From an uncultured Eubacteriales bacterium (GTDB lineage: Bacteria > Bacillota > Clostridia > Christensenellales > CAG-138): a stretch of DNA of 64,000 bases. The stretch covers positions 18,410 through 82,409 of the forward strand of contig CADCMN010000001.1 in assembly GCA_902802575.1 (NCBI GenBank). Reading direction: 5' to 3'. The notes under the pieces were generated by a model, which saw only the letters and a list, made by a program, of their open reading frames with translations, had not been told where the DNA came from and did no database searches. The translations under genes and the position numbers were made by a program. Shown piece after piece: positions 7,807-53,434 of the stretch. Numbering within the stretch: position 1 is the stretch's first letter; the number at the start of each line of letters is the position of its first letter.

Positions 7807-9447
7807 ATGCAAGTTATGAAACGGATCCTGGTTTTCACCTTGGCCCTGCTGATGATCTTGGGAGGCTGCAGGACGGCGAACAAGCGCGAGAAGAAAGAGG
7901 ACGTCTTCGACCATCTGGCGGAAACAGATGAGCGGGGAAAGGAGACCCATGTGCCCGCTTCGCCGGAGCCGACCCCGGAGCCCACACCGGAGGCTACAGA
8001 GGAACCCATGGCGGAAGTGACGGCAGAGCCTACGGCGGAACCGACGCTCGAGCCCACTCAGGAACCGACGCCGGAACCTACCCAAGAGCCGACACCCGAG
8101 CCTGCGGCGGAGCCCTCGTCTCAGGCGCCCGTCGTTGAGAACGGTGTGCTGATAGCCAACGAGATCGAGCCCATGGAGACCCATGTGCCTGAGGCGACGA
8201 TCCTCAGCTGGTCCGGCAGCTTTAAGAAGGAAGAACAGATCGACAGTTATACCTTCACCACGGAGCGAGCCGGGGTGTACTGCTTCTTCTTTACGGACAT
8301 CCTGGATGGGCAGGAATACGCCATCCGGCTCACCAATGCCGCGGGGAACGCCGTGTTCAACGGAAACTATAACTATACGTATGGACTGGATGAATCCGCC
8401 GATCTTACGCTGAAGAAGGGCCAGACCTATACGCTGTCCGTGCGTCAGAAGGGCGACTATTACGGCGAGTATACCATCAACGTGGGCGTCCAGAAGGAAT
8501 ATCTGGAAGTGGGCGACTATACGGCCATCTACGACAGCTTTGAATTCGTTCATCAGCAGAACGGCTACACATTTGTCCCGAAGGTCAGCGGCACATACTG
8601 TTTCGGGGTGTCGGGGCTCCCGGAAGGATATTCCTGCGGCATCCAGGTGGTCAACGCCGCCGGAAAAGCCATCACCAACAGCAATTGGAATTACTCATAT
8701 TCGGACAAACAGGGGCATGCGGTCACCTTGTCCGCAGGCCAGACCTATGTGGTGAAGTACCGGGAGAGCGGGTATCGCGGTCCCTATTGCGTGGAAGTGG
8801 GCCTGTATAAGCAGGTGGGGGACGTGAGCAACGTCTTTGGGGTGGATGACAGCATCCAGTTTTTGAACCAGCGGAACCTGTACACCTTCGTCCCGGAGCA
8901 GACCGCCTCGTACCAGTTCGGCTTCTCAGGCATACCCGAGGGCTATTCCTATATGATCCAGGTCGTGAATCCGGTGGGTCAGGCCATCACCAACGGAAAC
9001 TGGAATTATTACTACGGCAACCACGAAAGCCAGTGGGTCAACCTGACGGCCGGACAAACCTATACCATCGTCGTGCGGCCCAGGAACGCGCTGTATGGGA
9101 AATACCGCCTCGACATCAGCGCCTTTTGTGCGCCGGTGGATGTGAAGCTGGACGAGCCCGTACAGGATTCGATCCAGTACCGCCTGCAGAGGAATATGTA
9201 CACCTTTACCCCGGGATCGGACGGCAAATACAGCATCGAACTTAGCGGCATGCCCCCCGAATACAGCTACTACATCCAGGTGTGGAACGGCATCGGGCAG
9301 ATCATCAGCAACGGGAATTGGAATTATACGTACAAAAACGGCAGTTCGCAGACCTTGGATCTGCAGGCCGGCCAGACCTACACCATCATCGTGAAGCAGA
9401 ACGGCAACTTCCTAAGCGACTACACCATCCGCATCCGCCGGAAATAG
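7807..9447 (+). CDS. lipoprotein with four tandem ~105-aa beta-sandwich (pre-peptidase C-terminal-like) repeats
   Basis: 546 aa. Lipobox-like LLMILGGC, Glu/Pro/Thr linker, four repeats each ending in (A/K)GQTYT..V......Y. Alternative start ATG at 7816 has the better RBS. Confidence 0.75.
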   Translation: MQVMKRILVFTLALLMILGGCRTANKREKKEDVFDHLAETDERGKETHVPASPEPTPEPTPEATEEPMAEVTAEPTAEPTLEPTQEPTPEPTQEPTPEPAAEPSSQAPVVENGVLIANEIEPMETHVPEATILSWSGSFKKEEQIDSYTFTTERAGVYCFFFTDILDGQEYAIRLTNAAGNAVFNGNYNYTYGLDESADLTLKKGQTYTLSVRQKGDYYGEYTINVGVQKEYLEVGDYTAIYDSFEFVHQQNGYTFVPKVSGTYCFGVSGLPEGYSCGIQVVNAAGKAITNSNWNYSYSDKQGHAVTLSAGQTYVVKYRESGYRGPYCVEVGLYKQVGDVSNVFGVDDSIQFLNQRNLYTFVPEQTASYQFGFSGIPEGYSYMIQVVNPVGQAITNGNWNYYYGNHESQWVNLTAGQTYTIVVRPRNALYGKYRLDISAFCAPVDVKLDEPVQDSIQYRLQRNMYTFTPGSDGKYSIELSGMPPEYSYYIQVWNGIGQIISNGNWNYTYKNGSSQTLDLQAGQTYTIIVKQNGNFLSDYTIRIRRK

Positions 9448-9474
9448 ATCAATCCACCGGAAACAGATCAAAAC

Positions 9475-9507
9475 AATGAGCCGAAACGCCATCCGTTTCG
9501 GCTCATT
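9475..9507. terminator. bidirectional intrinsic terminator between convergent genes
   Basis: Perfect hairpin aatgagccgaaacg / cgtttcggctcatt with a 6-nt loop, followed by ggctttt. Confidence 0.7.
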
Positions 9508-9521
9508 GGCTTTTGGTTGCA

Positions 9522-11180
9522 TCAGTTGAAATTCACTTTGACGGCGTTATATTTCTTTTTGGTCCAGTATTCCAGCGCCCAGGGGGAGGTGCGATAGGTG
9601 TCGTTGGGATACGCGGTCACAGAAATATTTTTGACCTTGGTATAATTGAATGTTTTCGCCACGGCGATGGCCAGATCCTGCACCTTTATCATCTGGTTCA
9701 TCAGCGAGACCGACGCCGAGTTCAGGGAATTGCTCTTGCGCTTGGCGGCCTTGTTCGCTTCGCTGTCCGCGGTGCTGTATTGCTTTTTCAGAGCGCTCAG
9801 GGCGGATTTGAATTCCGCAAACTGGGCGCGCTGCGCATCGGTATACTTGGGGGTGCCGGGTTCTCCGTTTTCATCCACCTGGGCCGCTTGGCGATCATCC
9901 TCATCGATCAGCTTCTGCACGTAGGCTTTGAGCGGGTCGCAGATATCCATATACTGAGGCCGGAGCATCTTGCACCAGGTATATCGGCCATAGGCCAGGG
10001 AGTATTTGGGGTTGGTCTTGACATCCACGCCATAGATCTCTTTGATCAGAGCCACCCGTTCGGACTGCTTCGTGAAGACGAAGTTCCAGTGAAACAGAGT
10101 GGCCGAATCCCCGCTCATGGAATGGGCGCCGATGTTGTCCGGATCCAGCTTGTAGCCAAAGAGGGCCAAGGCGGCGGTCTGCTCCGGCGTGCAGTTTGTG
10201 AACAGCACTCCATCGAAAGAGGCCAGGATCTCGGGCACCTTCAAAACGAGATTCTCTTCCTTCATCTTTTTGAAGATGGCCACCATCATGTTCTTCTGCC
10301 GTTTGACACGGTTGCTGTCTCCGGTGGGCAGCTGCCCGTGTCCGGACTTGCGCACCCGCATATAATCCAAACAGGCCTGGCCGTCCATGTGCTGGAAACC
10401 GGCCTTATAGTAGCGCCCGCCGTTGTCGAAATTGCCTTCCAGGTTGTACCAAACGCCGCCGACGATGTCCACGATCTGTTTCACTGATTCCATGGTCACG
10501 GCATAATAGTAATCCACATTGATGCCGCCCAGCATCCATTCGGCCGCTTCGCACACCTTTTCGAACCCTTCCCCGTTCTCACAGAACAAGCCGTAGTTGG
10601 TGCCGTCCGTGCCGCAGTTGAGAGCCGCGTTGAGCTTGTATACGCCCTCCACGCCGGGAATGCTGGCATAGGTGTCTCGGGGCAGGGAAATGAGATCCAC
10701 CCGGTTTTCGTTGAAGTTGACGGCGCAGACGATCATCACATCGGAATGGAAGGAATTGCCGCCCTTGCCTGACCAGTTGTTGATCCGTGCCGATTCATAG
10801 TCCACGCCGATGAACATGATGTTGACGATGCCGTCCATCATGCCGGTGTCTGCCACCTTGGCAAGCTCTTCATAGGGCCCGGGCGTTTGCGTGGGTTGGG
10901 GGGTGTCTTCGATCATGGTCGGGGAGCACGATTCTGGTACAGGGACTTCTGTTGCGTCTATAGAAGGTGCAGCCACGGGCACGAAAGGACTTGCGGTGGG
11001 CAGGGGAGTCGCCCGGACTGTACGATCATCCGTGTTGAACAGATCCTGGCCGGAAAACAACACGCCGGAAATCTTTCCGCCAAGCAGGACACCCAGGGCA
11101 ACGGCCAATACCGCTGCGGCGGAAAGCAGCGCGTAGGTTCGGATGCGTTTTTTCTTTTTGGAATCTTTGCCCATTGACAT
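9522..11180 (-). CDS. LCP (LytR-CpsA-Psr) family glycopolymer ligase
   Basis: 552 aa. N-terminal TM anchor. LCP core NIMFIGVD..SDVMIVCAVNFNENRVDLISLPRDTY. Long C-terminal extension. Confidence 0.85.
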   Translation of the reverse strand: MSMGKDSKKKKRIRTYALLSAAAVLAVALGVLLGGKISGVLFSGQDLFNTDDRTVRATPLPTASPFVPVAAPSIDATEVPVPESCSPTMIEDTPQPTQTPGPYEELAKVADTGMMDGIVNIMFIGVDYESARINNWSGKGGNSFHSDVMIVCAVNFNENRVDLISLPRDTYASIPGVEGVYKLNAALNCGTDGTNYGLFCENGEGFEKVCEAAEWMLGGINVDYYYAVTMESVKQIVDIVGGVWYNLEGNFDNGGRYYKAGFQHMDGQACLDYMRVRKSGHGQLPTGDSNRVKRQKNMMVAIFKKMKEENLVLKVPEILASFDGVLFTNCTPEQTAALALFGYKLDPDNIGAHSMSGDSATLFHWNFVFTKQSERVALIKEIYGVDVKTNPKYSLAYGRYTWCKMLRPQYMDICDPLKAYVQKLIDEDDRQAAQVDENGEPGTPKYTDAQRAQFAEFKSALSALKKQYSTADSEANKAAKRKSNSLNSASVSLMNQMIKVQDLAIAVAKTFNYTKVKNISVTAYPNDTYRTSPWALEYWTKKKYNAVKVNFN

Positions 11181-11348
11181 TCTCCTTTTTCATTATCGTT
11201 ATCATATACTGCGAGGGCCGTTCTTTCTACATCATTATCCTTGATATTACAAACAGTTTACAAATCTGTGACATGTTCGATGATTTTTCTCTTCCTTTTT
11301 TTCAACGCTGTGGTATAATGAAAAAAGTTTTTTAGGAGAAACCGAAGT

Positions 11349-12380
11349 ATGATGATCGTTATCCCTGCCTACCAGCCCGATGAAAAACTGACTGGCGTGG
11401 TGGATACCCTGATTGAAAAAACAAACTTTCCCATCGTCATCGTGGATGACGGCAGCCGTGAGGACTGTCAGCCCCTGTTCGCGGCGCTTTCTCAAAAGGA
11501 TCATGTCACGGTTCTGCATCATGAAGTGAACCGCGGTAAAGGCGCCGCCTTAAAGACGGCTTTTCAGTATGTGTATGAGAACTGTCCCGAAGCGGAGGGC
11601 GTGATCACAGTGGACGCCGACGGACAGCATCTCCCGGACGACGTGCTGCGGGTGGCGGAGGCCTTTGCCAACCATCGCGACGCTTTGGTCACCGGTTCCC
11701 GCCGCTTCACCGGCAAGGTGCCCTTCAAGAGCCGGGCCGGCAACGCCATCACGCGATTTGTGTTTGCCATTTCCACCGGCGTGAAGGTATATGATACGCA
11801 GACCGGCCTTCGAGCCTTCTCCCGGGAAAACATCCCCCGCATGCTCTCCTTGAAGGGGGACCGGTATGAATATGAGATCAGCCAGCTGCTCTATTGCTGC
11901 CGGGAGATGATCCCCATCGTTGAGGTGCCCATCGAGACCGTCTATATCGAGGACAACGCCTCGTCCCATTTCCGCGCCCTTCGGGACGGCTGGCGCATCT
12001 ACAAGATGATCCTCATGTTCGTCAGCTCCTCGCTGCTGAGCTTTCTTTTGGAGTACGTCCTGTTTCTGTTCCTGATCTGGCTCACCAAGAGCTGGGCCCA
12101 GGCGTCCTCCATCCTGTTCTCCACGGCGATCTCCCGGGTGCTGAGCTCCATCTTCAATTACCTGTACAACAAGCGCCTGGTGTTCGAGGCGGCCAACCGG
12201 ACCAGCTTTCTCCGGTATACCGTCCTGGCGCTGTTCATCTTTGGATGCCATTATGGGCTGCTGTATCTATTCACGGTGCTCTGCGGCATCCCGGAGTGGA
12301 TCTCCTATGCCATCGTGCAGCTGATCGTCTACCCCATGAGCTTCGTGCTCCAGCGTAAATTTGTGTTTGTAAAGGATTGA
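11349..12380 (+). CDS. glycosyltransferase family 2 fused to GtrA-like membrane domain
   Basis: 343 aa. GT-A signature IVIPAYQP..VIVDDGS..VDADGQH. C-terminal 4-TM GtrA-like part (FNYLYNKRLVFE). Confidence 0.85.
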   Translation: MMIVIPAYQPDEKLTGVVDTLIEKTNFPIVIVDDGSREDCQPLFAALSQKDHVTVLHHEVNRGKGAALKTAFQYVYENCPEAEGVITVDADGQHLPDDVLRVAEAFANHRDALVTGSRRFTGKVPFKSRAGNAITRFVFAISTGVKVYDTQTGLRAFSRENIPRMLSLKGDRYEYEISQLLYCCREMIPIVEVPIETVYIEDNASSHFRALRDGWRIYKMILMFVSSSLLSFLLEYVLFLFLIWLTKSWAQASSILFSTAISRVLSSIFNYLYNKRLVFEAANRTSFLRYTVLALFIFGCHYGLLYLFTVLCGIPEWISYAIVQLIVYPMSFVLQRKFVFVKD

Positions 12381-12387
12381 GACCGAT

Positions 12388-13596
12388 ATGAGAGCAAGCA
12401 GTAAAAAACGGATCCTGCGCTGGGTCATCCTGGATCTATGCGCGTTTTGTGTGATGGCGTATCTCATCTGCGCTCAGGTGTTCCGCTTCTTCCCCTGGAA
12501 ACCGGTGGATATAACCGAAACGATGACCGTTTTGGCCACGCCGACGCCCGTCGTGACAACGCCCACACCGGCGCCCACCGACACGCCCACTCCCACCGAA
12601 ACGCCTGCGCCGACCACTGAAGGAACGGACGCCCCCGGCGGCAGCGATCCCCAGGCGGCAGCGAGCGCTCCGGCGGACACGCCCGAACCCACCGCAACCC
12701 CCGAACCCACGCCGGCGCCCACGGAGGAGCCCAAGGGGCTGCTTCGCGGTAAATATGCGGAGAAGTTCTCCGCCAGCCAGGTCGTTTCCACCGAAAAGGA
12801 ATATCGCAGCGAAAACGTGGCCATAGAGATGACCTCTAAAACCGGTTATGTGTGCAAAAAATGTTATCATACGTCGGAGAATTACGGGACCTGCCCGTTC
12901 TGCGGAAGCGAGTTGACCAACAAGTCCGGCAAGAACGGCAACAAATTGACCTATATGGTGGCGGATATCTACGTACAGGATGTCTCCAGCCTGCGGACCG
13001 CATACAGCGACAGCAATCAGAAGAGAGTTAAGGATATGTGCAAGGAGAACAACGGTCTCCTGGCCATCAACGGGGACATGTACATGACATCCCATAAAAA
13101 CAATTACGGATGGTTCGTCCGTAACGGGGTAGAGATCGCACGGCACAGCAAACTGCGCACCGATCTTTGCATACTGTATTCGGACGGTACCGTGGAGACC
13201 GTGGATATCCAGACCCAAACGGTGAACATTGAAGGTATCTACGCAAAGTACCCCCAGCAGATTTGGTACTTTGGACCGGCGCTTCTGGGGGCTGACGGCT
13301 CAGCCAAGGATACATTCACCATCGGCAGAAATGTGGCCGGCAACAATCCCCGTTCTGTATTTGGATACTATGAACCCGGCCACTATTGCTTCATCACGGT
13401 GGACGGCCGGGATAATGATAGGGGCATTTCCATGGCGGAGCTGTCCATGCTCTGCGCGGATATGGGCATGGCCGCAGCGTACAACATGGATGGAGGCGGC
13501 TCGTCCTGTATGTATTTTGCCGGAAAGAACTACGGGCAGAACACGCGCGGTACAACCGATATCGTCTACATAACTGAACCTGCAAAGGAGAATTAA
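12388..13596 (+). CDS. phosphodiester glycosidase (NAGPA/DUF2233) family protein with inserted zinc ribbon
   Basis: 402 aa. Signal anchor, Pro/Thr/Glu linker, CKKC..CPFCG ribbon, LLAINGDMY and AYNMDGGGSS family motifs. Confidence 0.8.
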   Translation: MRASSKKRILRWVILDLCAFCVMAYLICAQVFRFFPWKPVDITETMTVLATPTPVVTTPTPAPTDTPTPTETPAPTTEGTDAPGGSDPQAAASAPADTPEPTATPEPTPAPTEEPKGLLRGKYAEKFSASQVVSTEKEYRSENVAIEMTSKTGYVCKKCYHTSENYGTCPFCGSELTNKSGKNGNKLTYMVADIYVQDVSSLRTAYSDSNQKRVKDMCKENNGLLAINGDMYMTSHKNNYGWFVRNGVEIARHSKLRTDLCILYSDGTVETVDIQTQTVNIEGIYAKYPQQIWYFGPALLGADGSAKDTFTIGRNVAGNNPRSVFGYYEPGHYCFITVDGRDNDRGISMAELSMLCADMGMAAAYNMDGGGSSCMYFAGKNYGQNTRGTTDIVYITEPAKEN

Positions 13597-13598
13597 GT

Positions 13599-13904
13599 AT
13601 GAAAAAAAAGAAATCCGTTCCCCGCTGGCTGCAGATCGTTTCCACGGTTGTCGCCAATGCCGCCATCGTGCTGTCCGTCGTGTATATCGTCTTCTATATC
13701 CTTGACGGCTTCAATCCCATGCTTCATTTTCTGGGCGAGCAGGTAGCCGTCTCCAAGTATATGGACGTCATCATTGCCGGTGTGGCGCTTATTTTGGGCG
13801 TTCTGTTCCTGATCTGCACCTGGAAGATCTTCTATGGAAAGAAGGGCAAGAAAGCAAAGCGCATTCCCCAGTCTCAGTATGAGGAACAATACGCGGAGGA
13901 ATAA
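13599..13904 (+). CDS. small membrane protein
   Basis: 101 aa. Two hydrophobic helices, Lys-rich tail. Starts 3 nt after the upstream stop. Confidence 0.5.
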   Translation: MKKKKSVPRWLQIVSTVVANAAIVLSVVYIVFYILDGFNPMLHFLGEQVAVSKYMDVIIAGVALILGVLFLICTWKIFYGKKGKKAKRIPQSQYEEQYAEE

Positions 13905-13912
13905 AGCAAAAC

Positions 13913-13946
13913 CAAAAAAAACGGACGGCGGACCGTCCGTTTTTTT
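13913..13946. terminator. bidirectional intrinsic terminator
   Basis: A-run, cggacgg/ccgtccg hairpin, T-run, between convergent genes. Confidence 0.8.
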
Positions 13947-13963
13947 GTTGTGTATGGGTTGTT

Positions 13964-15208
13964 TTATTCCTGCGGCTTGGGCGCCCGCTTCCGATTCAGA
14001 TAGATATCCAGCTTATCCTTGATCTTGTCCGGTATCTCCCGCTTCACCGGGCAGCGGACGGCGTTGGCCATGCGGCCGGTGAACCCGGCGATGAACTCTA
14101 TATCTGTCACCACCTGCTGCGCGGAAACGATGGCGGGCGTATCGTACCGCTCATGGATGGACCCGGCTGTGGGCGGCGCAAGGCGGGCAAAGGACAGGCT
14201 GGGCACGCCCTTGTCGGCAAAGGGGGTGGAGTCGCTGGAATAGACGCCGCTGCGGGCGGCGATGGGGAAGCCAAGCTCGTCCGCCGTGTACTCCAGGAAG
14301 GATACCAGCCGCTCCTCCGCGGAGCAGCAGGCGATGAACTTGCCCATGATGCTGCCGATCATATCCAGGTTGATGTTCAGCACCACCTTCTCCAGATCCT
14401 TTTCATGGTCGGCACAGTAGGCCTTGGAGCCCAGCAGCCCCAGCTCCTCACCGCCGCACCAGATGAACCGAAGACCGCGCCGGTGAGGGGCTTTGATAAA
14501 CCGCTCCGCCACCCCCAGGATGCCGATGGAACCGGTCATATTGTCATAGCTGCCGCAGGAGAGGGGCGTGGAATCGTAGTGGGCCGTCAGCACGATCCAT
14601 TCGTCGATCTCACCCGGGAGCTCGGCGATCAGATTGTGGGCGTCGGCCTCATAGGCTTCCTGGTCGATTTCGATGGAGGCTTGCTGTCCGTTCCGGGCGA
14701 CGATCGGCATGGCGTCCTTGACGTTGATGTTGACGCCCAGGATCTTCTTGCCCAGACTGGTGGCCGGGCGCAGGGTCTTTTGGTCAATGTCACGATCAGG
14801 GCAGCTGTATCGGCCCGTGAAGGTGATGAAGCCCAGGGCGCCGTTTTCCAGCATATCCTGATAGGTCCACATCTTCAGGGGCTGGTCTGTCAGCACGATG
14901 CGATCCCTGCACAGGGACAAAGACAGGGCGTCGGTATCCCGCAGGTAGTAGAGGGGGGCTTCCACCTTGCCGCTGCCGCAGCCGATGTATGCTTTACAGG
15001 GATATGCCGTTCCATCCACGGTCAGATGGGCGCAGCGTATGTTCGCGCGCTCGATGGGGAAGGCTTCCACTCTGGTGGTCAGCCCGATCCTCTCACACAC
15101 TGCCTGCAAATAGGACAAGCATTTCATTTCTTCGGGACTTGCCGCCGTGTGGGGGTAGGCGGTGTCCTTCAGGATCCGTTTCACGTCGTTGATTTTCAAC
15201 ACGATCAC
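13964..15208 (-). CDS. M28 family metallopeptidase
   Basis: 414 aa. LTAHYDS, DNMTGS and WCGGEELGLLGSKAY metal-ligand contexts. Confidence 0.75.
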   Translation of the reverse strand: MIVLKINDVKRILKDTAYPHTAASPEEMKCLSYLQAVCERIGLTTRVEAFPIERANIRCAHLTVDGTAYPCKAYIGCGSGKVEAPLYYLRDTDALSLSLCRDRIVLTDQPLKMWTYQDMLENGALGFITFTGRYSCPDRDIDQKTLRPATSLGKKILGVNINVKDAMPIVARNGQQASIEIDQEAYEADAHNLIAELPGEIDEWIVLTAHYDSTPLSCGSYDNMTGSIGILGVAERFIKAPHRRGLRFIWCGGEELGLLGSKAYCADHEKDLEKVVLNINLDMIGSIMGKFIACCSAEERLVSFLEYTADELGFPIAARSGVYSSDSTPFADKGVPSLSFARLAPPTAGSIHERYDTPAIVSAQQVVTDIEFIAGFTGRMANAVRCPVKREIPDKIKDKLDIYLNRKRAPKPQE

Positions 15209-15321
15209 CTGCCTTTCTTATGAAACAGAATACCACAGAAGCTCAGGTAAAACAAGTGAGATCAATTTCAAAAAAAGGCTTGCAAATTATTAGACGATGC
15301 TGTATAATCTTTCTTGCGCGC

Positions 15322-15398
15322 GGGGATGTAGCTCAGCTGGTTAGAGCGCTGTGTTCACATCGCAGAGGTCTAGGGTTCGAGTCCCTACATCCCCACCA
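15322..15398 (+). tRNA. tRNA-Val (anticodon CAC)
   Basis: Manual cloverleaf. Acceptor GGGGATG/CATCCCC, D stem GCTC/GAGC, anticodon stem CTGTG/CGCAG with loop TTCACAT, T arm TAGGG-TTCGAGT-CCCTA, discriminator A, encoded CCA. Confidence 0.9.
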
Positions 15399-48901: not shown

Positions 48902-49127
48902 GGCTTCCCCTCCTGTCAAGGACATCATAGCAGAGTCCGGGGCCTGATGCACGACTTTTTGTGCGCACAGGCATCGGACAGATACAGAATCAAAACTCCG
49001 TTTGTTTTCATGTTTGAAATGTTTTTGCATCCGCGCATCTCTCCGTTTATACTAAATAAAAACAGTTTTCGGAGAAATCAAACGCAGACAAACAGAACTT
49101 TTGCTATCCAGCAGGGAGGAAAACAGC

Positions 49128-49769
49128 ATGACGGAAAAACTATTATCCATGATCGGTGAACGGTATCCGATCCAAGAGATCGACGTGGGGCCCTATGGGG
49201 CCATCAAAGCAAAGGGCATGGTATTCTCCGCCCGCGCGTTCGAGGCGCAGGGGCTGGGACACATTTCGGTGATGCAGGCTAAAGGCTTCTTCGGCCTTAT
49301 GAAGATGGACACGCTGATCGTGAACCCGAAGGAGTTGGATCTGCCCCTGTATTCCTATGACCGCATCCTGGCCATGGGCAACGACACGCTGATCATCGAG
49401 CTGTACGACACCATGGTCGAAGCCTGCCCGATGGACGCGATCCATGGGGTGAACGCCAAGTATGAGAGTCTGCCGGAGCGCGACCCGGGCCAGCACTGGT
49501 ACGATTCCATCAAGCTCCCCGAGAGCGTTTCAAAGAAGGGGAAGAAGCTTTCGACCCGGTTTGACGCCTATACGACGGACTTCACAAAGGCGTACCTGTC
49601 GCTGCCGACCCAGCCGGTCGCGGACCCGGAGAAGAAGCGTGAAAAGACGAACGTCTATGTGGAGGGGCTGCTGCGCAACGGCGGACCGTCCACGGATGTG
49701 TTCAAGCAGGCCTTGGGCGAGGAGAAGTGCGCCGAGATGTTCCGGACCGTGCTCTTCGGAACGAACTAA
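49128..49769 (+). CDS. hypothetical protein (possible bilin-reductase-like fold, weak)
   Basis: Start at MTEKLL (GGGAGG RBS). See finding. No firm family assignment. Confidence 0.55.
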   Translation: MTEKLLSMIGERYPIQEIDVGPYGAIKAKGMVFSARAFEAQGLGHISVMQAKGFFGLMKMDTLIVNPKELDLPLYSYDRILAMGNDTLIIELYDTMVEACPMDAIHGVNAKYESLPERDPGQHWYDSIKLPESVSKKGKKLSTRFDAYTTDFTKAYLSLPTQPVADPEKKREKTNVYVEGLLRNGGPSTDVFKQALGEEKCAEMFRTVLFGTN

Positions 49770-49820
49770 TATAATTCCAATTGATCCGTTGGGTATGAGG
49801 AAGAAAAACGTATAGACAAA

Positions 49821-50072
49821 GTGATCGACCGATTCTGGCTCGAATCCATTGCGGCAAAGGACGCCGACACAGCGGAAAAAGCTTTCCGGCAACGGCAAGG
49901 GAAAGAGCTGTTTGCATGCTGGCGCGACAAGGATTGGTATCAAAGTGAAAAACCTGCCGATGAAAAGATGCTGCTTGCATACGAAACGGGCGGAATCGAT
50001 GCCTGCATGGCGCTTCTCACAAAAACCTGTCAGCGCAACATGAAAAAGCTGAAGGAAGGGGGCATTCTGTAA
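49821..50072 (+). CDS. hypothetical small protein
   Basis: 83 aa ORF with a GTG start and a poor RBS. Confidence 0.3.
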   Translation: MIDRFWLESIAAKDADTAEKAFRQRQGKELFACWRDKDWYQSEKPADEKMLLAYETGGIDACMALLTKTCQRNMKKLKEGGIL

Positions 50073-50100
50073 ATCAGCAGCCCGCACCGCGCCGATAACA

Positions 50101-50498
50101 GCATCCCACCGCTGAAGCATCCACAATATCGGTAAAAACCCGTTCGGATCCTGACGTCTCCGAATAAGGCCAAAACACAGGAATGGGGAGTACGGCCCCC
50201 AGATATTTGAATATATAACGGGGTGGGATTCGACCCGCGCTGCGGCGCGGGCCATGGGCTCGGCTCTCAGGCCCCACCGGGGCCTGATTCACTACCGAGC
50301 CCGTTCGAATCCCACCGTCTCCGGAAGGCCAAAACACAGAGGTGGGGAGAACGGCCCCCAGAGACTTGAGCGCCCGCCGGGGTGGGATTCTGCCCTTGCC
50401 GCTGAAAACGCCGCACTGCGGCGTTTTCTTAACGCGGCTTCGAATCCCGCCGTCTCCGGAAGGCCAAAACAAAACCACCCATGCGGGTGGTTTTGTTT
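50101..50498. repeat. array of tRNA-Ser 3'-end-derived fragments in alternating orientation with conserved spacers
   Basis: Plus-strand copies of TTCGAATCCCACCGTCTCCG at 50304 (20/20), 50439 (19/20) and 50143 (16/20). Inverted partners GGTGGGATTCGA at 50222 and 50381. Conserved spacer ggccaaaacacag..tggggag.acggcccccaga..ttga occurs twice. Confidence 0.75.
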
Positions 50499-50587
50499 TG
50501 GCGGAGACGGTGGGATTCGAACCCACGGAACATCGCTGTTCAACTGATTTCGAGTCAGCCCCGTTATGACCGCTTCGATACGTCTCC
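50499..50587 (-). tRNA. tRNA-Ser (anticodon CGA)
   Basis: Manual fold. Acceptor GGAGACG/CGTCTCC, anticodon stem GCTGA/TCAGT with loop CTCGAAA, long variable arm GAAC-AGCGAT-GTTC, T arm GTGGG-TTCGAAT-CCCAC, discriminator G, encoded CCA. Confidence 0.85.
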
Positions 50588-50604
50588 AGGCAGAGGGAAA
50601 AAAA

Positions 50605-51045
50605 TCAACGCTTTCTTTGAAAGAATTCCGTGAGCAGGGCGGCGCCGTCCCTTTCCAGGATCCCGCCCCAGGTCTCCACTGAGTGATAGAACCAATGGTC
50701 CGTCAGATCCACCCGGGAGCCTGTGCAGCCGCAGCTCGTATCGAAAGCCCCGAAGACCAGCCGGGGGAGCTTCAAAAGCACCATGGCCCCGGCGCACATG
50801 GCGCAGGGCTCCATGGTCACGTACAGGGTGCAGCCGGTCAGGGACCCGAGCTGCCGCTGGGCTTGACGAAGGGCCAGCAGCTCCGCGTGCTGGGTGGGAT
50901 CATTGTTTTGCCGGGACAGGTTGTGGGCCCGGGCCACGATCTCGTCATCCTTGACGACCACGGCCCCCACGGGTACCTCGTCCTCCTGTAAGGCGGCCTG
51001 AGCCTCCTGGAGCGCCGCCCGCATCCACTGTTCATCATTCCTCAC
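50605..51045 (-). CDS. tadA: tRNA adenosine(34) deaminase
   Basis: 146 aa. HAELLAL and TMEPCAMCAGA zinc motifs. Confidence 0.9.
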   Translation of the reverse strand: MRNDEQWMRAALQEAQAALQEDEVPVGAVVVKDDEIVARAHNLSRQNNDPTQHAELLALRQAQRQLGSLTGCTLYVTMEPCAMCAGAMVLLKLPRLVFGAFDTSCGCTGSRVDLTDHWFYHSVETWGGILERDGAALLTEFFQRKR

Positions 51046-51808
51046 GGGCGAGCACCTCCTCCGTGTCGAAGTCGGGATATTTCACCCGCCACAGCACCAG
51101 GCCGTGGGGCGGGGCTGTGGGACCGGCGTCCTTCCGGGAGAGGGAGGAGAGGGCTTTTTCCATGCTGTCAGGGGCTATCCGCCCGCTGCCCATGCCCACC
51201 ATAGTGCCCGCCAGGATGCGGACCATGTTGTAGAGGAATCCGTTCCCCTGGACGGTGTAGACGAGAAACTTTCCCTGCTTTTCCCAGCGGGACAGGCTAA
51301 CGGAGCGCACGGCGCTTTCCACCTCCCGGCCTGTGGACATGAAAGCCGAAAAGTCGTGGGTGCCCATCACGAGAGCGGCGGCCTCGTTCATCAGGTCAAA
51401 ATCGAGGGGCATATAGGCGTGGAGCGAGTATTTGCGGGCGAACACGTCCGCATGGGGGCCGGTTTGCACAAAGTAGCGGTACTGCTTCTCCTTGGCGGAG
51501 AAGCGGGCGTGAAAGTCGGGCGAGACCTCCTCGGAGCAGAGGACCCGGATGTCCGCAGGCAGATGGGTATTGAGGGCGATGGCAAACTTGTCCGCCGCCA
51601 TGCGGACCCCCGTGTCGAAGTGAGCCACCTGGGCCCGGGCGTGGACGCCGGAGTCCGTACGGCCGCTGCCCTGGAGGCTGACGCGCTCGCCGGTCACTTC
51701 CAGGATGGCCTTTTCGACCACTTCCTGGACGGCCACGCCGTTATTTTGGGTCTGCCAGCCCACGTAGTCCGTGCCGTCGTATGAAATTATGGTCCGAATG
51801 CGCCGCAT
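51035..51808 (-). CDS. truA: tRNA pseudouridine(38-40) synthase
   Basis: Start MRRIRTIISYDGTDYVGWQ at 51808, overlapping the ecfT stop (TGATG). GRTDSGVHA catalytic Asp motif. Confidence 0.9.
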   Translation of the reverse strand: MRRIRTIISYDGTDYVGWQTQNNGVAVQEVVEKAILEVTGERVSLQGSGRTDSGVHARAQVAHFDTGVRMAADKFAIALNTHLPADIRVLCSEEVSPDFHARFSAKEKQYRYFVQTGPHADVFARKYSLHAYMPLDFDLMNEAAALVMGTHDFSAFMSTGREVESAVRSVSLSRWEKQGKFLVYTVQGNGFLYNMVRILAGTMVGMGSGRIAPDSMEKALSSLSRKDAGPTAPPHGLVLWRVKYPDFDTEEVLAREE

Positions 51809-52602
51809 CACAGAAGCCTCGGGAAAAGCCCCTGGACCGTCAATATGACGGCCAGGAAGGCCATCGTCACCAGGGCGGCCACAAGGTCCCCCCGGCCCAG
51901 CTTCAGCTGGTGGAGCTTGGTCCTCCCCTCGCCGCCGTGATAGCAGCGGGATTCCATGGCCATGGCCAGCTCGTCCGCCCGCCGGAAGGAGGAGACGAAC
52001 AGGGGGATCAGGATAGGGATCATGGCCTTGGCCCGGGCGATGATGTTCCCGGATTCGAAGTCCGCGCCCCGGGCCATCTGGGCCTTGCGGATCTTGTCGG
52101 CCTCCTCCATGAGGGTGGGGATGAAGCGGAGGGCGATGGTCATCATCATGGCCAGTTCGTGGGCGGGGAAGCGGAGGGCCTTGAGGGGCGAGAGCATCCG
52201 TTCGAGGCCGTCCGTCAGGGCGATGGGGGAGGTGGTCAGCGTCATGATGGACGCGCCGGTCACCAGCAGGATCAGGCGCAGGGAGATGTAGACCGCCTGC
52301 CGCAGCCCTTCTTCGGTGATCTTGATGAACTTCCAGCTGTACAGAATCGTATTCCCCGGAGTGATGAACAGGTTCAACAGGAACATGAACACCAGCAAAA
52401 AGCGGATGGGCTTGATGGCTTTGCCGAAGTAGGTGAAGGAGATCTGCCCCAGCCCCAGGCACAGAAACACGTAGGCGAGGGGCACCAAAAACAAGGGCAG
52501 GGATTTCACCAGGAACACCATGACGATATAGACCAGCATCAGCACGATCTTCGTCCGGGGGTCCAGCCGGTGGATGCAGGAGTTGCCGGGGATGAATTGG
52601 CC
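51808..52602 (-). CDS. ecfT: ECF transporter transmembrane component (start unresolved)
   Basis: ORF 51808..52545. The same frame continues upstream as GGQFIPGNSCIHRLDPRTKIV (conserved EcfT N-terminus) to a TGA at 52606-52608 with no start codon. Confidence 0.75.
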   Translation of the reverse strand, partial: GQFIPGNSCIHRLDPRTKIVLMLVYIVMVFLVKSLPLFLVPLAYVFLCLGLGQISFTYFGKAIKPIRFLLVFMFLLNLFITPGNTILYSWKFIKITEEGLRQAVYISLRLILLVTGASIMTLTTSPIALTDGLERMLSPLKALRFPAHELAMMMTIALRFIPTLMEEADKIRKAQMARGADFESGNIIARAKAMIPILIPLFVSSFRRADELAMAMESRCYHGGEGRTKLHQLKLGRGDLVAALVTMAFLAVILTVQGLFPRLL

Positions 52603-53434
52603 CCCTCAACAGATATTCCTCCAGGTCCTCCCGGGTGCAGACGTCCAGGGGGGCGTCCACGCCCATCTTCCGCAGCAAAGCCGCCACCCGGCAGGGGGCA
52701 GGCAGGGAGAGCCCCATCTCGGAGAGCTCGTCGCTGTGGGAGAAGACGGCCTTGGGGGTGTCCAGATATTTGACCTCGCCCTGATTCATGACCAGGATGC
52801 GGTCCGCGTGCCGGGCCACGTCCTCCATGGAGTGTGAGACCATGATGATGCTGCAGCCCGTGTCTGAGCGCAGCTTTTCCAGCATGGCGAGGATGCTCTG
52901 CCGTCCCTGAGGGTCCAGGCCCGCCATGGGCTCGTCCAGCACCAGGTATTTGGGCCGCATGGCCAGGATGCCCGCCAGGGCCGCCCGCCGCTTCTCGCCG
53001 CCGGACAGCTCAAAGGGGGATTTTTCGGCGAACTGGTCCATACTGAGCCCGACCATGGACATGGCTTCGCTGACTCGGATAGAGATCTCCTCCTCGCTGA
53101 GCTTCATGTTCTGGGGCCCGAAGGCCACGTCCTCCCGGACCGTGTCCGCAAAGAGCTGGTATTCGGGATATTGGAACACCATGCCCACCAGGGATCGGAT
53201 GCGGGGACGCAGCTTTTTATCCGCGGTGTCGAGCCCGTCCACCAGCACCCGGCCGGCGCTGGGGAGCAGCAGGCCGTTGAGATGCTGGACCAACGTGGTC
53301 TTGCCGCAGCCGGTGTGGCCGATGAGGGACAAAAATTCGCCTTCGCGTATCTCAAGGGAAACGTCCTTCACCGCGGTATTGGACGTGACGCCGTCGAAAT
53401 AGGTATGGGACAGATGATCTATAACAATGGGCAT
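52603..53434 (-). CDS. ecfA2: ECF transporter ATPase A2 (no in-frame stop at expected end)
   Basis: N-terminal ~280 aa of the 799-aa ORF 51035..53434. GHTGCGKTT, LSGGEKRR, LVLDEP. Recognisable sequence ends near ..EDLEEYLLRG. Confidence 0.8.

Follow-up and report, generated by a model that had tools for sequence, protein, structure and literature searches.

The window analysed here is a 64-kb stretch of contig CADCMN010000001.1 from an uncultured Eubacteriales bacterium (CAG-138). It contains a gene for the serine transfer RNA (tRNA) with the anticodon CGA, tRNA-Ser(CGA), which is followed at its 3' end by the subject of this study, a lineage-specific DNA repeat array that consists of a stack of long imperfect palindromes. 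The 20-nucleotide (nt) sequence TTCGAATCCCACCGTCTCCG from the 3' end of the tRNA recurs on the plus strand, opposite to the gene, at 50304 (20 of 20 positions identical) and 50439 (19/20), and the number of such matches expected in a shuffled window is 0. An initial annotation of this DNA had described three inverted copies, including a weaker one at 50143 (16/20), and our analysis recovers all three with the same identities. The same-sense fragments that it placed between them, GGTGGGATTCGA at 50222 and GGTGGGATTC at 50381, are real as well, and their full extent is the 13-nt repeat CGGGGTGGGATTC at 50219 and 50378. In the following, 'a' denotes the inverted 20-mer, IR the 13-nt same-sense piece and T0 the terminator of the tRNA.

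From left to right, the array is composed of a1, a spacer, a linker, IR and core A, followed by a2 with a second spacer, linker and IR and core B, and finally by a3, T0 and the tRNA gene. Each unit starts with an inverted 'a', continues with the left edge of the terminator, a linker of about 27 nt and the 13-nt IR, and ends in the hairpin core, which is either type A or type B. The two units of the window differ in their cores and are otherwise readily aligned, from 'a' through spacer and linker to IR; the unit periods are 161, 135 and 136 nt. The sequence TGGGGAG.ACGGCCCCCAGA, pointed out initially as a conserved spacer following both upstream copies, is restricted to positions 50184 and 50343 in the whole 64 kb. 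The third inverted copy leads, as had also been noted, into the terminator palindrome, and the last 'a', T0 and the actual tRNA 3' end together form the largest palindrome of the array, with arms of 38 nt.

Several of these modules resemble intrinsic terminators. Read on either strand, T0 has a GC stem between an A-tract and a T-tract. The type-B core is terminator-like on both strands too, with a 6-bp GC stem of -7 to -10 kcal/mol that is followed within the next 9 nt by six T on the plus strand and four to five T on the minus strand. The start of spacer 2 repeats the sequence found after a3 (GGAAGGCCAAAACA), which is the left edge of the terminator, and on the minus strand, the strand of the tRNA, this spacer contains TGGGGGCCGTTCTCCCCA and a T-rich tail that are terminator-like with a weaker hairpin. 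Judged by sequence, the combination of a GC hairpin and a T-tract is present in T0, in the type-B cores on both strands and in the spacer hairpin on the minus strand. The long hairpin of the type-A core contains a conserved internal loop, CTCTC / GATTCACTA. The coordinates of all features are collected in Table 1.

Table 1. Features of the tRNA-Ser(CGA) gene and the adjoining repeat array (positions of the window)
Feature	Position	Strand	Description
Possible oldest inverted-copy remnant	50099-50110	+	CAGCATCCCACC, distal edge of the array; weak, one 12-nt match
a1	50143-50162	+	Inverted copy, degenerate, 16/20 (repeat listing and manual count)
Spacer 1 + linker 1	50163-50218	+	AATAAGGCCAAAACACAGGAATGGGGAGTACGG + CCCCCAGATATTTGAATATATAA; 87% identical to spacer 2 + linker 2
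IR1	50219-50231	+	CGGGGTGGGATTC, continues as GA; pairs with a2 over 12 bp
Type-A core	50232-50303		72 nt; hairpin CCCGCGC/GCGCGGG and long hairpin GGGCTCGG..AGGCCCC/GGGGCCT..CCGAGCCC
a2	50304-50323	+	Inverted copy of the tRNA 3' end, 20/20
Spacer 2	50324-50354	+	GAAGGCCAAAACACAG..TGGGGAGAACGG
Linker 2	50355-50377	+	CCCCCAG-N4-TTG-N9; position of the motif conserved, variable between; no consensus structure
IR2	50378-50390	+	CGGGGTGGGATTC, same-sense partial copy of the tRNA T-arm region; pairs with a3
Type-B core	50391-50438		48 nt; outer helix GCCGC/GCGGC and apical A-tract/GC-stem/T-tract hairpin
a3	50439-50458	+	Inverted copy, 19/20; left arm of the palindrome a3-T0-tRNA
T0	50463-50502	both	Predicted bidirectional intrinsic terminator; 18-bp perfect palindrome GCCAAAACAAAACCACCC / GGGTGGTTTTGTTTTGGC
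tRNA-Ser 3' end	50502-50521		Right arm of the terminal palindrome; reads CGGAGACGGTGGGATTCGAA on the + strand
tRNA-Ser(CGA) gene	50499-50587	-	ARAGORN; Rfam tRNA, 52.8 bits

The initial annotation proposed that neighbouring copies pair in two alternative registers. Only the register that joins IR, core and 'a' is more stable than shuffled sequences. As DNA, the segment from IR1 through core A to a2 (50219-50323) folds with -43.2 kcal/mol (z = -8.2 versus shuffles), the segment of IR, core B and 'a' reaches z = -5.3, and the terminal palindrome from a3 through T0 to the tRNA end (50433-50527) folds with -44.1 kcal/mol (z = -11.3). The register that runs from 'a' across the spacer to the next IR folds no better than shuffles (z = -1.4 for unit 2 and -0.2 for unit 1), and we therefore regard it as a by-product of the alternating repeats, not as a comparable structure. 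The helix described with a T opposite a G as its sole mismatch was identified at 50381-50390 / 50442-50451. The tRNA-derived arms show no covariation, and their mismatches are uncompensated. RNA folds of the region exceed shuffled sequences by far in stability, with z about -10 for either strand.

The orthologous locus was compared among relatives, which comprise contigs with an identical TadA and TadA relatives down to 84% identity (loci are given L numbers below); a metagenome scan for the linker and IR motif contributed six loci as a second source. The same modules are present at nearly all orthologous loci, and their number and order vary by lineage. Read from the distal end towards the tRNA, the cassettes are A,B in the window, L001 and L032; B,B,A in L014-22 and L039; C,A in L029, and likewise in L003 as far as the contig reaches, C being a decayed A; C,B in L028; and B,B in L036 and L037. 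A single B is found in L024, L030, L031 and L052, and a single A in L033 and L047. L040 contains no cassette and has a degenerate 'a' alone beside the terminator, and L049, where the neighbour gene is co-directional, has no array. Whole units have been gained or lost between the repeats among strains whose TadA is 100% identical, which bears out the variation in unit number that had been suggested for comparison between strains. Ten contigs of the B,B,A lineage share one array sequence, with a single base different in L021.

The units are uniform in build. Type-B cores are always 48 nt long (11-12 distinct orthologous copies) and type-A cores 72 nt, and the orientation of the core is identical in 18 of 18 distinct cassettes, which argues against the inversion events that had been considered as a source of the pattern. 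The most distal copies are the most decayed, as seen in a1 (16/20) and in cassette C. L024 and L047 have different cores (B versus A), although the sequence to the left of these is almost the same as far as IR. Many contigs stop within or near the array, some of them precisely at a hairpin centre, as is expected of palindromes and of a tRNA sequence shared between strains in de Bruijn assemblies. The sequence type of T0 differs among strains with identical TadA, and the same T0 type is found in lineages whose TadA is only 86% identical (L003, L024 and L029 versus the window, L005 and L028); this distribution suggests an exchange of the small region across lineages.

Compensatory changes are found in the cores and in the terminator. 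Among the 11 distinct type-B cassettes, compensatory double changes affect 3 pairs of the apical hairpin; the outer helix GCCGC/GCGGC and the IR-a helix of type B show no covariation, and their few changes are mismatches or G-T pairs. In type A, represented by 7 cassettes from three lineages, 7 pairs in three helices are changed on both sides, a number that none of 500 shuffles reaches. The T0 stem occurs in five sequence types between lineages, all of which are paired. The wobble pairs point both ways with respect to the strand: several G-T pairs would be G-U on the plus strand, and an A-C at the end of the B hairpin and a C-A in L047 favour the minus strand. IR is invariant in every cassette except that of L052, in which it is changed without compensation. 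Across the type-B cassettes, mean pairwise identity is 97% for IR, 94% for the unpaired 5' basal stretch, 92% for 'a' and 85% for the apical hairpin, and the 32 nt to the left reach only 58-61%. Together, the conservation and the compensatory hairpins imply that the cassettes are not free-running debris. The array is more regular than random att-site debris, as had been claimed from the single sequence: the orthologous arrangement is kept in many relatives and the cassette hairpins compensate.

The array is placed between a terminator and a promoter, and in most relatives it takes up the whole interval from the tRNA terminator to the following sigma-70 promoter. Read on the tRNA strand, L024 and L036 contain the tRNA promoter, the tRNA, T0 and the array, directly followed by a promoter of the form TTGACA/TTGACT-N17-TATACT that serves a gene for a ribosomal-protection-type ABC-F protein. 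By eye, the same -35 box adjoins the array in L030, L031, L037, L047 and L052, giving a total of seven loci from five lineages. From the other side, no promoter faces into the array in L024 and L036, and promoter scans of the window and the relatives found no sigma-70-like promoter in or before the array.

The flanks of the locus differ between relatives. The interval from the array to the ABC-F gene contains no gene, an AraC gene or a GNAT gene, and in the window (48965-50098) it contains AraC together with open reading frames (ORFs) of 222 and 83 amino acids without a family match. The neighbours in L040 and L049 are quite different from those in the other relatives, and the flank of the tRNA in the window, L014, L024, L033, L040 and L049 is a small variable region without visible mobility genes. 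The leader of the ABC-F gene (L024 3275-3455; also L030-32, L036-37, L047 and L052) contains, by eye, AAGGAG, a three-codon upstream ORF (ATG CGC AAC TGA) and hairpins, and looks like a ribosome-dependent attenuator.

The array is restricted to one locus. All six metagenome matches to the cassette motif (6/6) lie beside tRNA-Ser(CGA), and no further copy of the motif is present elsewhere in the 64-kb window. The tRNA-Val gene at 15322 has no such array, so the array is not a general property of this organism's tRNAs. A dispersed repeat or miniature inverted-repeat transposable element was rejected, as the window contains no second copy and no target-site duplication was seen by eye at the cassette edges. 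The dispersal in high copy number that marks the repetitive extragenic palindrome (REP) and bacterial interspersed mosaic element (BIME) families was likewise not observed, given that the metagenome matches all fall at one tRNA and none lies elsewhere in the 64 kb. Scanning a genome collection for TGGGGAGNACGGCCCCCAGA, a pattern that is too strict, gave only 4 chance matches in unrelated phyla. Three scans of viral contigs returned 0 or chance GC-rich matches, and plasmids gave no match. A phage origin was rejected, since the phage matches cover the tRNA alone; the 'Bacteriophage sp.' record L034 is a bacterial fragment with a 998-amino-acid ORF and a tRNA-Ser and without an array.

We favour, at a probability of about 45%, the reading that the array is anchored on the tRNA gene, originated by expansion of the terminator palindrome and duplication of units, and serves as a transcription insulator in both directions. 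Replication template switching would have lengthened the hairpin of the tRNA terminator outward, so that the tRNA 3' end was copied to the far side of the hairpin; the first inverted copy would then be the mirror image of the tRNA end across T0. L040 displays such a mirrored 'a' without any cassette. Template switching at hairpins is reported to create and extend stems, to homogenise their arms and to yield multi-base compensatory changes (PMC8794818, PMC13100816). Subsequently, segments reaching from the linker to the terminator loop may have been duplicated in tandem, which makes the alternating orientation automatic. In L032, L037 and L036, only the left half of a T0-type terminator separates the internal 'a' from the linker. 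Moreover, the 4-6 nt after 'a' are common to the internal and terminal copies of the same array, GGAAGG in the window and TAATG in L036 and L037, whereas in L014 these bases are not shared. The shared bases and the half terminators fit a duplication with its breakpoint in the terminator loop, followed by concerted evolution.

Under the same reading, unequal recombination between repeats of 20-95 nt would add, remove and swap units between strains, and every strain difference that we observed can be produced in this way. Exchange between the repeats could also account for the high identity of 'a', with the selected tRNA gene serving as an unchanging reference. The tRNA-derived 20-mers would need no role related to the tRNA, as their use would lie in forming the arms of the palindromes and in offering homology for recombination. 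The insulator function is suggested by the position of the array between the tRNA terminator and the next promoter, together with the bidirectional terminator-like hairpins of T0, the type-B cores and the spacer.

Several observations weigh against this reading. L049 lacks the array despite its co-directional neighbour, and thus an insulator is not obligatory. The type-A core has no T-tract and hence is not a terminator. The core swap between L024 and L047 can be obtained only with a breakpoint confined to about 13 nt, or with two distinct deletions plus a replaced terminator. The main fact that the reading does not cover is that the linker motif and cassette bases outside the helices are strongly conserved. 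The unpaired bases that hardly vary are TGCCCWT in type B, the two sides of the internal loop (CTCTC / GATTCACTA) in type A and an additional G in the CGGGG of IR. Next to a linker of only 58-61% identity, such bases are not explained by homogenisation of a palindrome, which implies that something reads these sequences.

The best-placed rival, though an unlikely one, is that a tyrosine recombinase using the T-loop and T-arm of tRNA-Ser captured small non-coding cassettes one by one; in a variant, the cassettes are the ends of larger elements left after loss of the interior, with the tRNA-derived arms as binding sites. Both tRNA-derived repeats stop sharply within the T-loop where they flank every core (GGGATTC-core-TTCGAATCC), and IR together with the first bases of core A restores nearly the whole T-arm in direct orientation. 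The palindromic T-loop (TTCGAA) permits joints in both orientations, comparable to the alternating pdif sites of Acinetobacter dif modules. The simplest arrays (L031, L024 and L052) look like one cassette between two 'a', L040 resembles an empty site with 'a' alone, and L024 and L047 carry different cores (B and A) next to left flanks that are almost the same. In addition, IR and 'a' are the best-conserved parts, and the genes beyond the array vary among relatives. However, integration duplicates att sites in direct orientation, and of the repeats in the array only the 13-nt T-arm piece has this orientation, the full-length copies being inverted. No integrase adjoins any array, the ORFs to its left match no phage or other family, and viral contigs, phages and plasmids provide no real match. 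The near-identity of one lineage's array in ten contigs also speaks against capture, as does the fact that homologous unequal recombination, on which the expansion reading relies, can produce all unit differences.

One relative provides a direct view of integration at this tRNA. L053 (TadA 84%) carries an integrative element (7873-15372) in the anticodon loop of the chromosomal tRNA-Ser(CGA), with genes for a tyrosine integrase, an HTH_17 excisionase-like protein, PemK, an ImmA-like peptidase and a Y-family polymerase. The host tRNA is reduced to its 5' half, and the element supplies a complete tRNA-Ser(CGA) of its own at 8101-8189, which has a different acceptor stem. This insertion establishes that tRNA-Ser(CGA) is a used integration site, in favour of the recombinase, but its crossover lies in the anticodon loop and is accompanied by neither 'a' nor IR nor cores. 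A link between L053 and the array through the spacer 10-mer TGGGGAGAAC, which occurs twice in L053, was rejected because the local alignment is not significant (reached by 32 of 300 shuffles). Serial integrase scars, one of the origins considered in the initial annotation, are a less probable source: an integrase element does reside at this tRNA in one relative, but it contains none of the repeats and leaves the fragments unexplained.

Somewhat less probable still is a structured non-coding RNA, in which the cassettes, type A especially, would owe their transcription to an unrecognised promoter or to read-through from the tRNA and be bound or processed through their conserved loops, while the tRNA-like and anti-tRNA 20-mers would pair with tRNA-Ser or its precursor. 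The compensatory changes in 7 type-A and 3 type-B pairs with conserved unpaired loops, the G-T pairs that correspond to G-U on the plus strand and the stable RNA folds of both strands are in line with this explanation. Nevertheless, the array is located after a strong terminator and before a promoter, with no sigma-70-like promoter in or ahead of it, the wobble evidence points both ways and the distal cassettes decay. Because the T-tract of the type-B core lies ahead of the 3' strands of both basal helices, an RNA terminated there would be unable to close these helices. This speaks against the tRNA-derived arms acting as RNA. A known RNA family was rejected, since Rfam at gathering thresholds reports tRNAs only; at E<=10 it adds long-hairpin artefacts and a sub-threshold permuted-tmRNA (transfer-messenger RNA) match over the terminal palindrome. 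The likeness of GGATTCGAC to tmRNA 5' ends is attributable to the near-palindromic T-arm. Pseudo-tRNA, tmRNA-like and permuted-tRNA identities were rejected on either strand, as ARAGORN and the tRNA model find none in the cassettes and the cores are no closer to the tRNA interior than shuffles. The RNA element envisaged at first is therefore unlikely: the array and its approaches in the relatives contain no promoter, Rfam at E<=10 contains no match beyond those artefacts, and the type-B core would terminate an RNA ahead of its closing helix.

We consider it improbable that the units are protein-bound DNA palindromes of the REP/BIME kind, which would form a structural or regulatory site recognised as duplex or cruciform, for example by gyrase, by a nucleoid protein or by a regulator that controls the neighbouring ABC-F or AraC gene. 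Alternating palindromic units with two kinds of linker, extragenic and behind a gene, correspond to the published BIME layout (PMC2817692): 'a' and IR alternate along the array, and so do spacer and core. Basal parts and linker motif conserve sequence rather than pairing, and at the seven loci named above, from five lineages, the array directly adjoins the ABC-F promoter at its -35 box. On the other hand, REP/BIME elements occur in >100 dispersed copies per genome and the motif here was found at one locus, no REP-associated transposase or candidate binding protein was identified, and the array is retained in the window, L014 and L033 although a different gene has taken the neighbouring place.

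Even less probable is a reading in which the cassettes are recombination sites of folded DNA, where a single-stranded stem of IR, core and 'a' mimics the T-arm duplex of tRNA-Ser and a tyrosine recombinase captures, stacks and exchanges them; if true, it would make the locus a tRNA-anchored counterpart of integrons or dif modules and explain the sharp T-loop boundaries, the invariant stem bases beside variable centres and the core swaps behind identical flanks.

Further identities were discarded. A protein-coding repeat was rejected because the only ORFs are mechanical ones overlapping the tRNA and the unit periods are not all multiples of 3. An invertible segment (inverton or shufflon) would disagree with the single orientation in 18 cassettes and the lack of an adjacent recombinase. 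For a promoter in the linker, either with its TTG as a -35 box or of the sigma-54 type, the spacing and the -10 box are unfit and the scans found none. By eye, a dif/Xer site in the AT-rich linker of unit 1 has a mismatched right arm. An integron attC array was rejected, as no array locus contains an integrase and, at the core/'a' junction, the only one compared by eye, GTTCGAA stands against GTTRRRY.

Two deletions distinguish the window from L001, to which it is 99.1% identical over 6.4 kb. At 50597, between tRNA-Ser and tadA, 18 bp (TAGTATAGCGTATCGGTT) are missing relative to L001 and all other relatives. This loss removes the -10 box of the tRNA-Ser promoter TTGATT-N17-TATACT, so that the tRNA may rely on read-through from tadA, unless the gap is an assembly error. 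At 52604, at the junction of ecfA2 and ecfT, a 28-bp deletion creates a mechanical ORF of 799 amino acids (51035-53434, minus strand) that runs from EcfA2 through an out-of-frame EcfT into TruA, which are three separate genes in L001.

If the expansion reading is true, the locus is a natural case of a terminator palindrome that grew into its gene and then seeded a tandem array, and it offers an example of hairpins built by template switching. It would also represent a repeat class with the BIME layout, yet of single-locus, tRNA-derived origin. The conserved unpaired bases suggest a factor that reads the cassettes, and if this factor were a recombinase, the locus would be a new kind of cassette system. 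In practical terms, the frequent position of the arrays at or near contig ends may help to explain assembly breaks at this tRNA, and the strain-variable unit content is usable as a strain marker for this group of gut or rumen Clostridia.

Among known systems, BIMEs are the closest in layout. They consist of short palindromic units in alternating orientation with alternating linkers and regular spacing, which lie outside genes at their 3' ends, fold into hairpins and differ in the number of units (PMC2817692). Our array likewise combines alternating palindromic units with alternating linkers outside genes. REP and BIME families, however, are dispersed and linked to RAYT transposases, whereas the array occupies one locus, its repeat is the 3' end of the adjacent tRNA, and its 'linkers' are conserved hairpin cores of 48 and 72 nt. 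The distal repeats of E. coli tyrT, reportedly described by Egan and Landy in 1978 and by Rossi et al. in 1981, are said to comprise about three tandem units of 178 bp, each with the last 19 nt of tRNA-Tyr. They resemble the array as tandem repeats directly behind a tRNA gene that carry about 20 nt of the tRNA 3' end, include the termination region of the operon and probably result from duplication and unequal recombination. The tyrT repeats are direct and not palindromic, and their unit encodes a small basic protein. To our knowledge, neither alternating orientation nor hairpin cassettes have been described for them; the copies in the array, by contrast, are inverted and palindromic.

Scars of the attL/attR type and tandem accretion share with the array the pieces of a tRNA 3' end, the T-loop boundaries, the variable genes beyond and an integrase element in one relative. 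Duplicated att sites have the same orientation and enclose an integrase-bearing element, whereas the array is built of inverted full copies, its 'elements' are conserved hairpins of 48-72 nt and no integrase is adjacent. On Acinetobacter plasmids, the site-like repeats of dif modules alternate obligatorily and bound discrete modules that are shuffled between replicons (PMC13141974). The array has in common with them alternating repeats that resemble recombination sites and bound modules. The pdif sites are 28-bp XerC/XerD sites on plasmids and dif modules carry genes; the modules of the array, in contrast, are non-coding and chromosomal at a tRNA, and its unit-1 linker shows by eye no match to dif. 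Integron attC sites, which occur in arrays, are 57-141 nt long and imperfectly palindromic; their stem bases are conserved, and the centre keeps its structure and varies in sequence. The segments of IR, core and 'a' agree with them in size (71-95 nt) and in the pattern of conservation, but differ in having neither an IntI gene nor ORFs between the sites. Finally, rrnB T1-T2 is a pair of tandem intrinsic terminators behind a highly expressed stable-RNA operon, and the array similarly places serial GC hairpins and T-tracts behind a stable RNA, its hairpins being kept by compensation. Unlike ordinary terminators, those of the array are embedded in longer conserved palindromes of the gene's own 3' end and are carried in cassettes that vary between strains.

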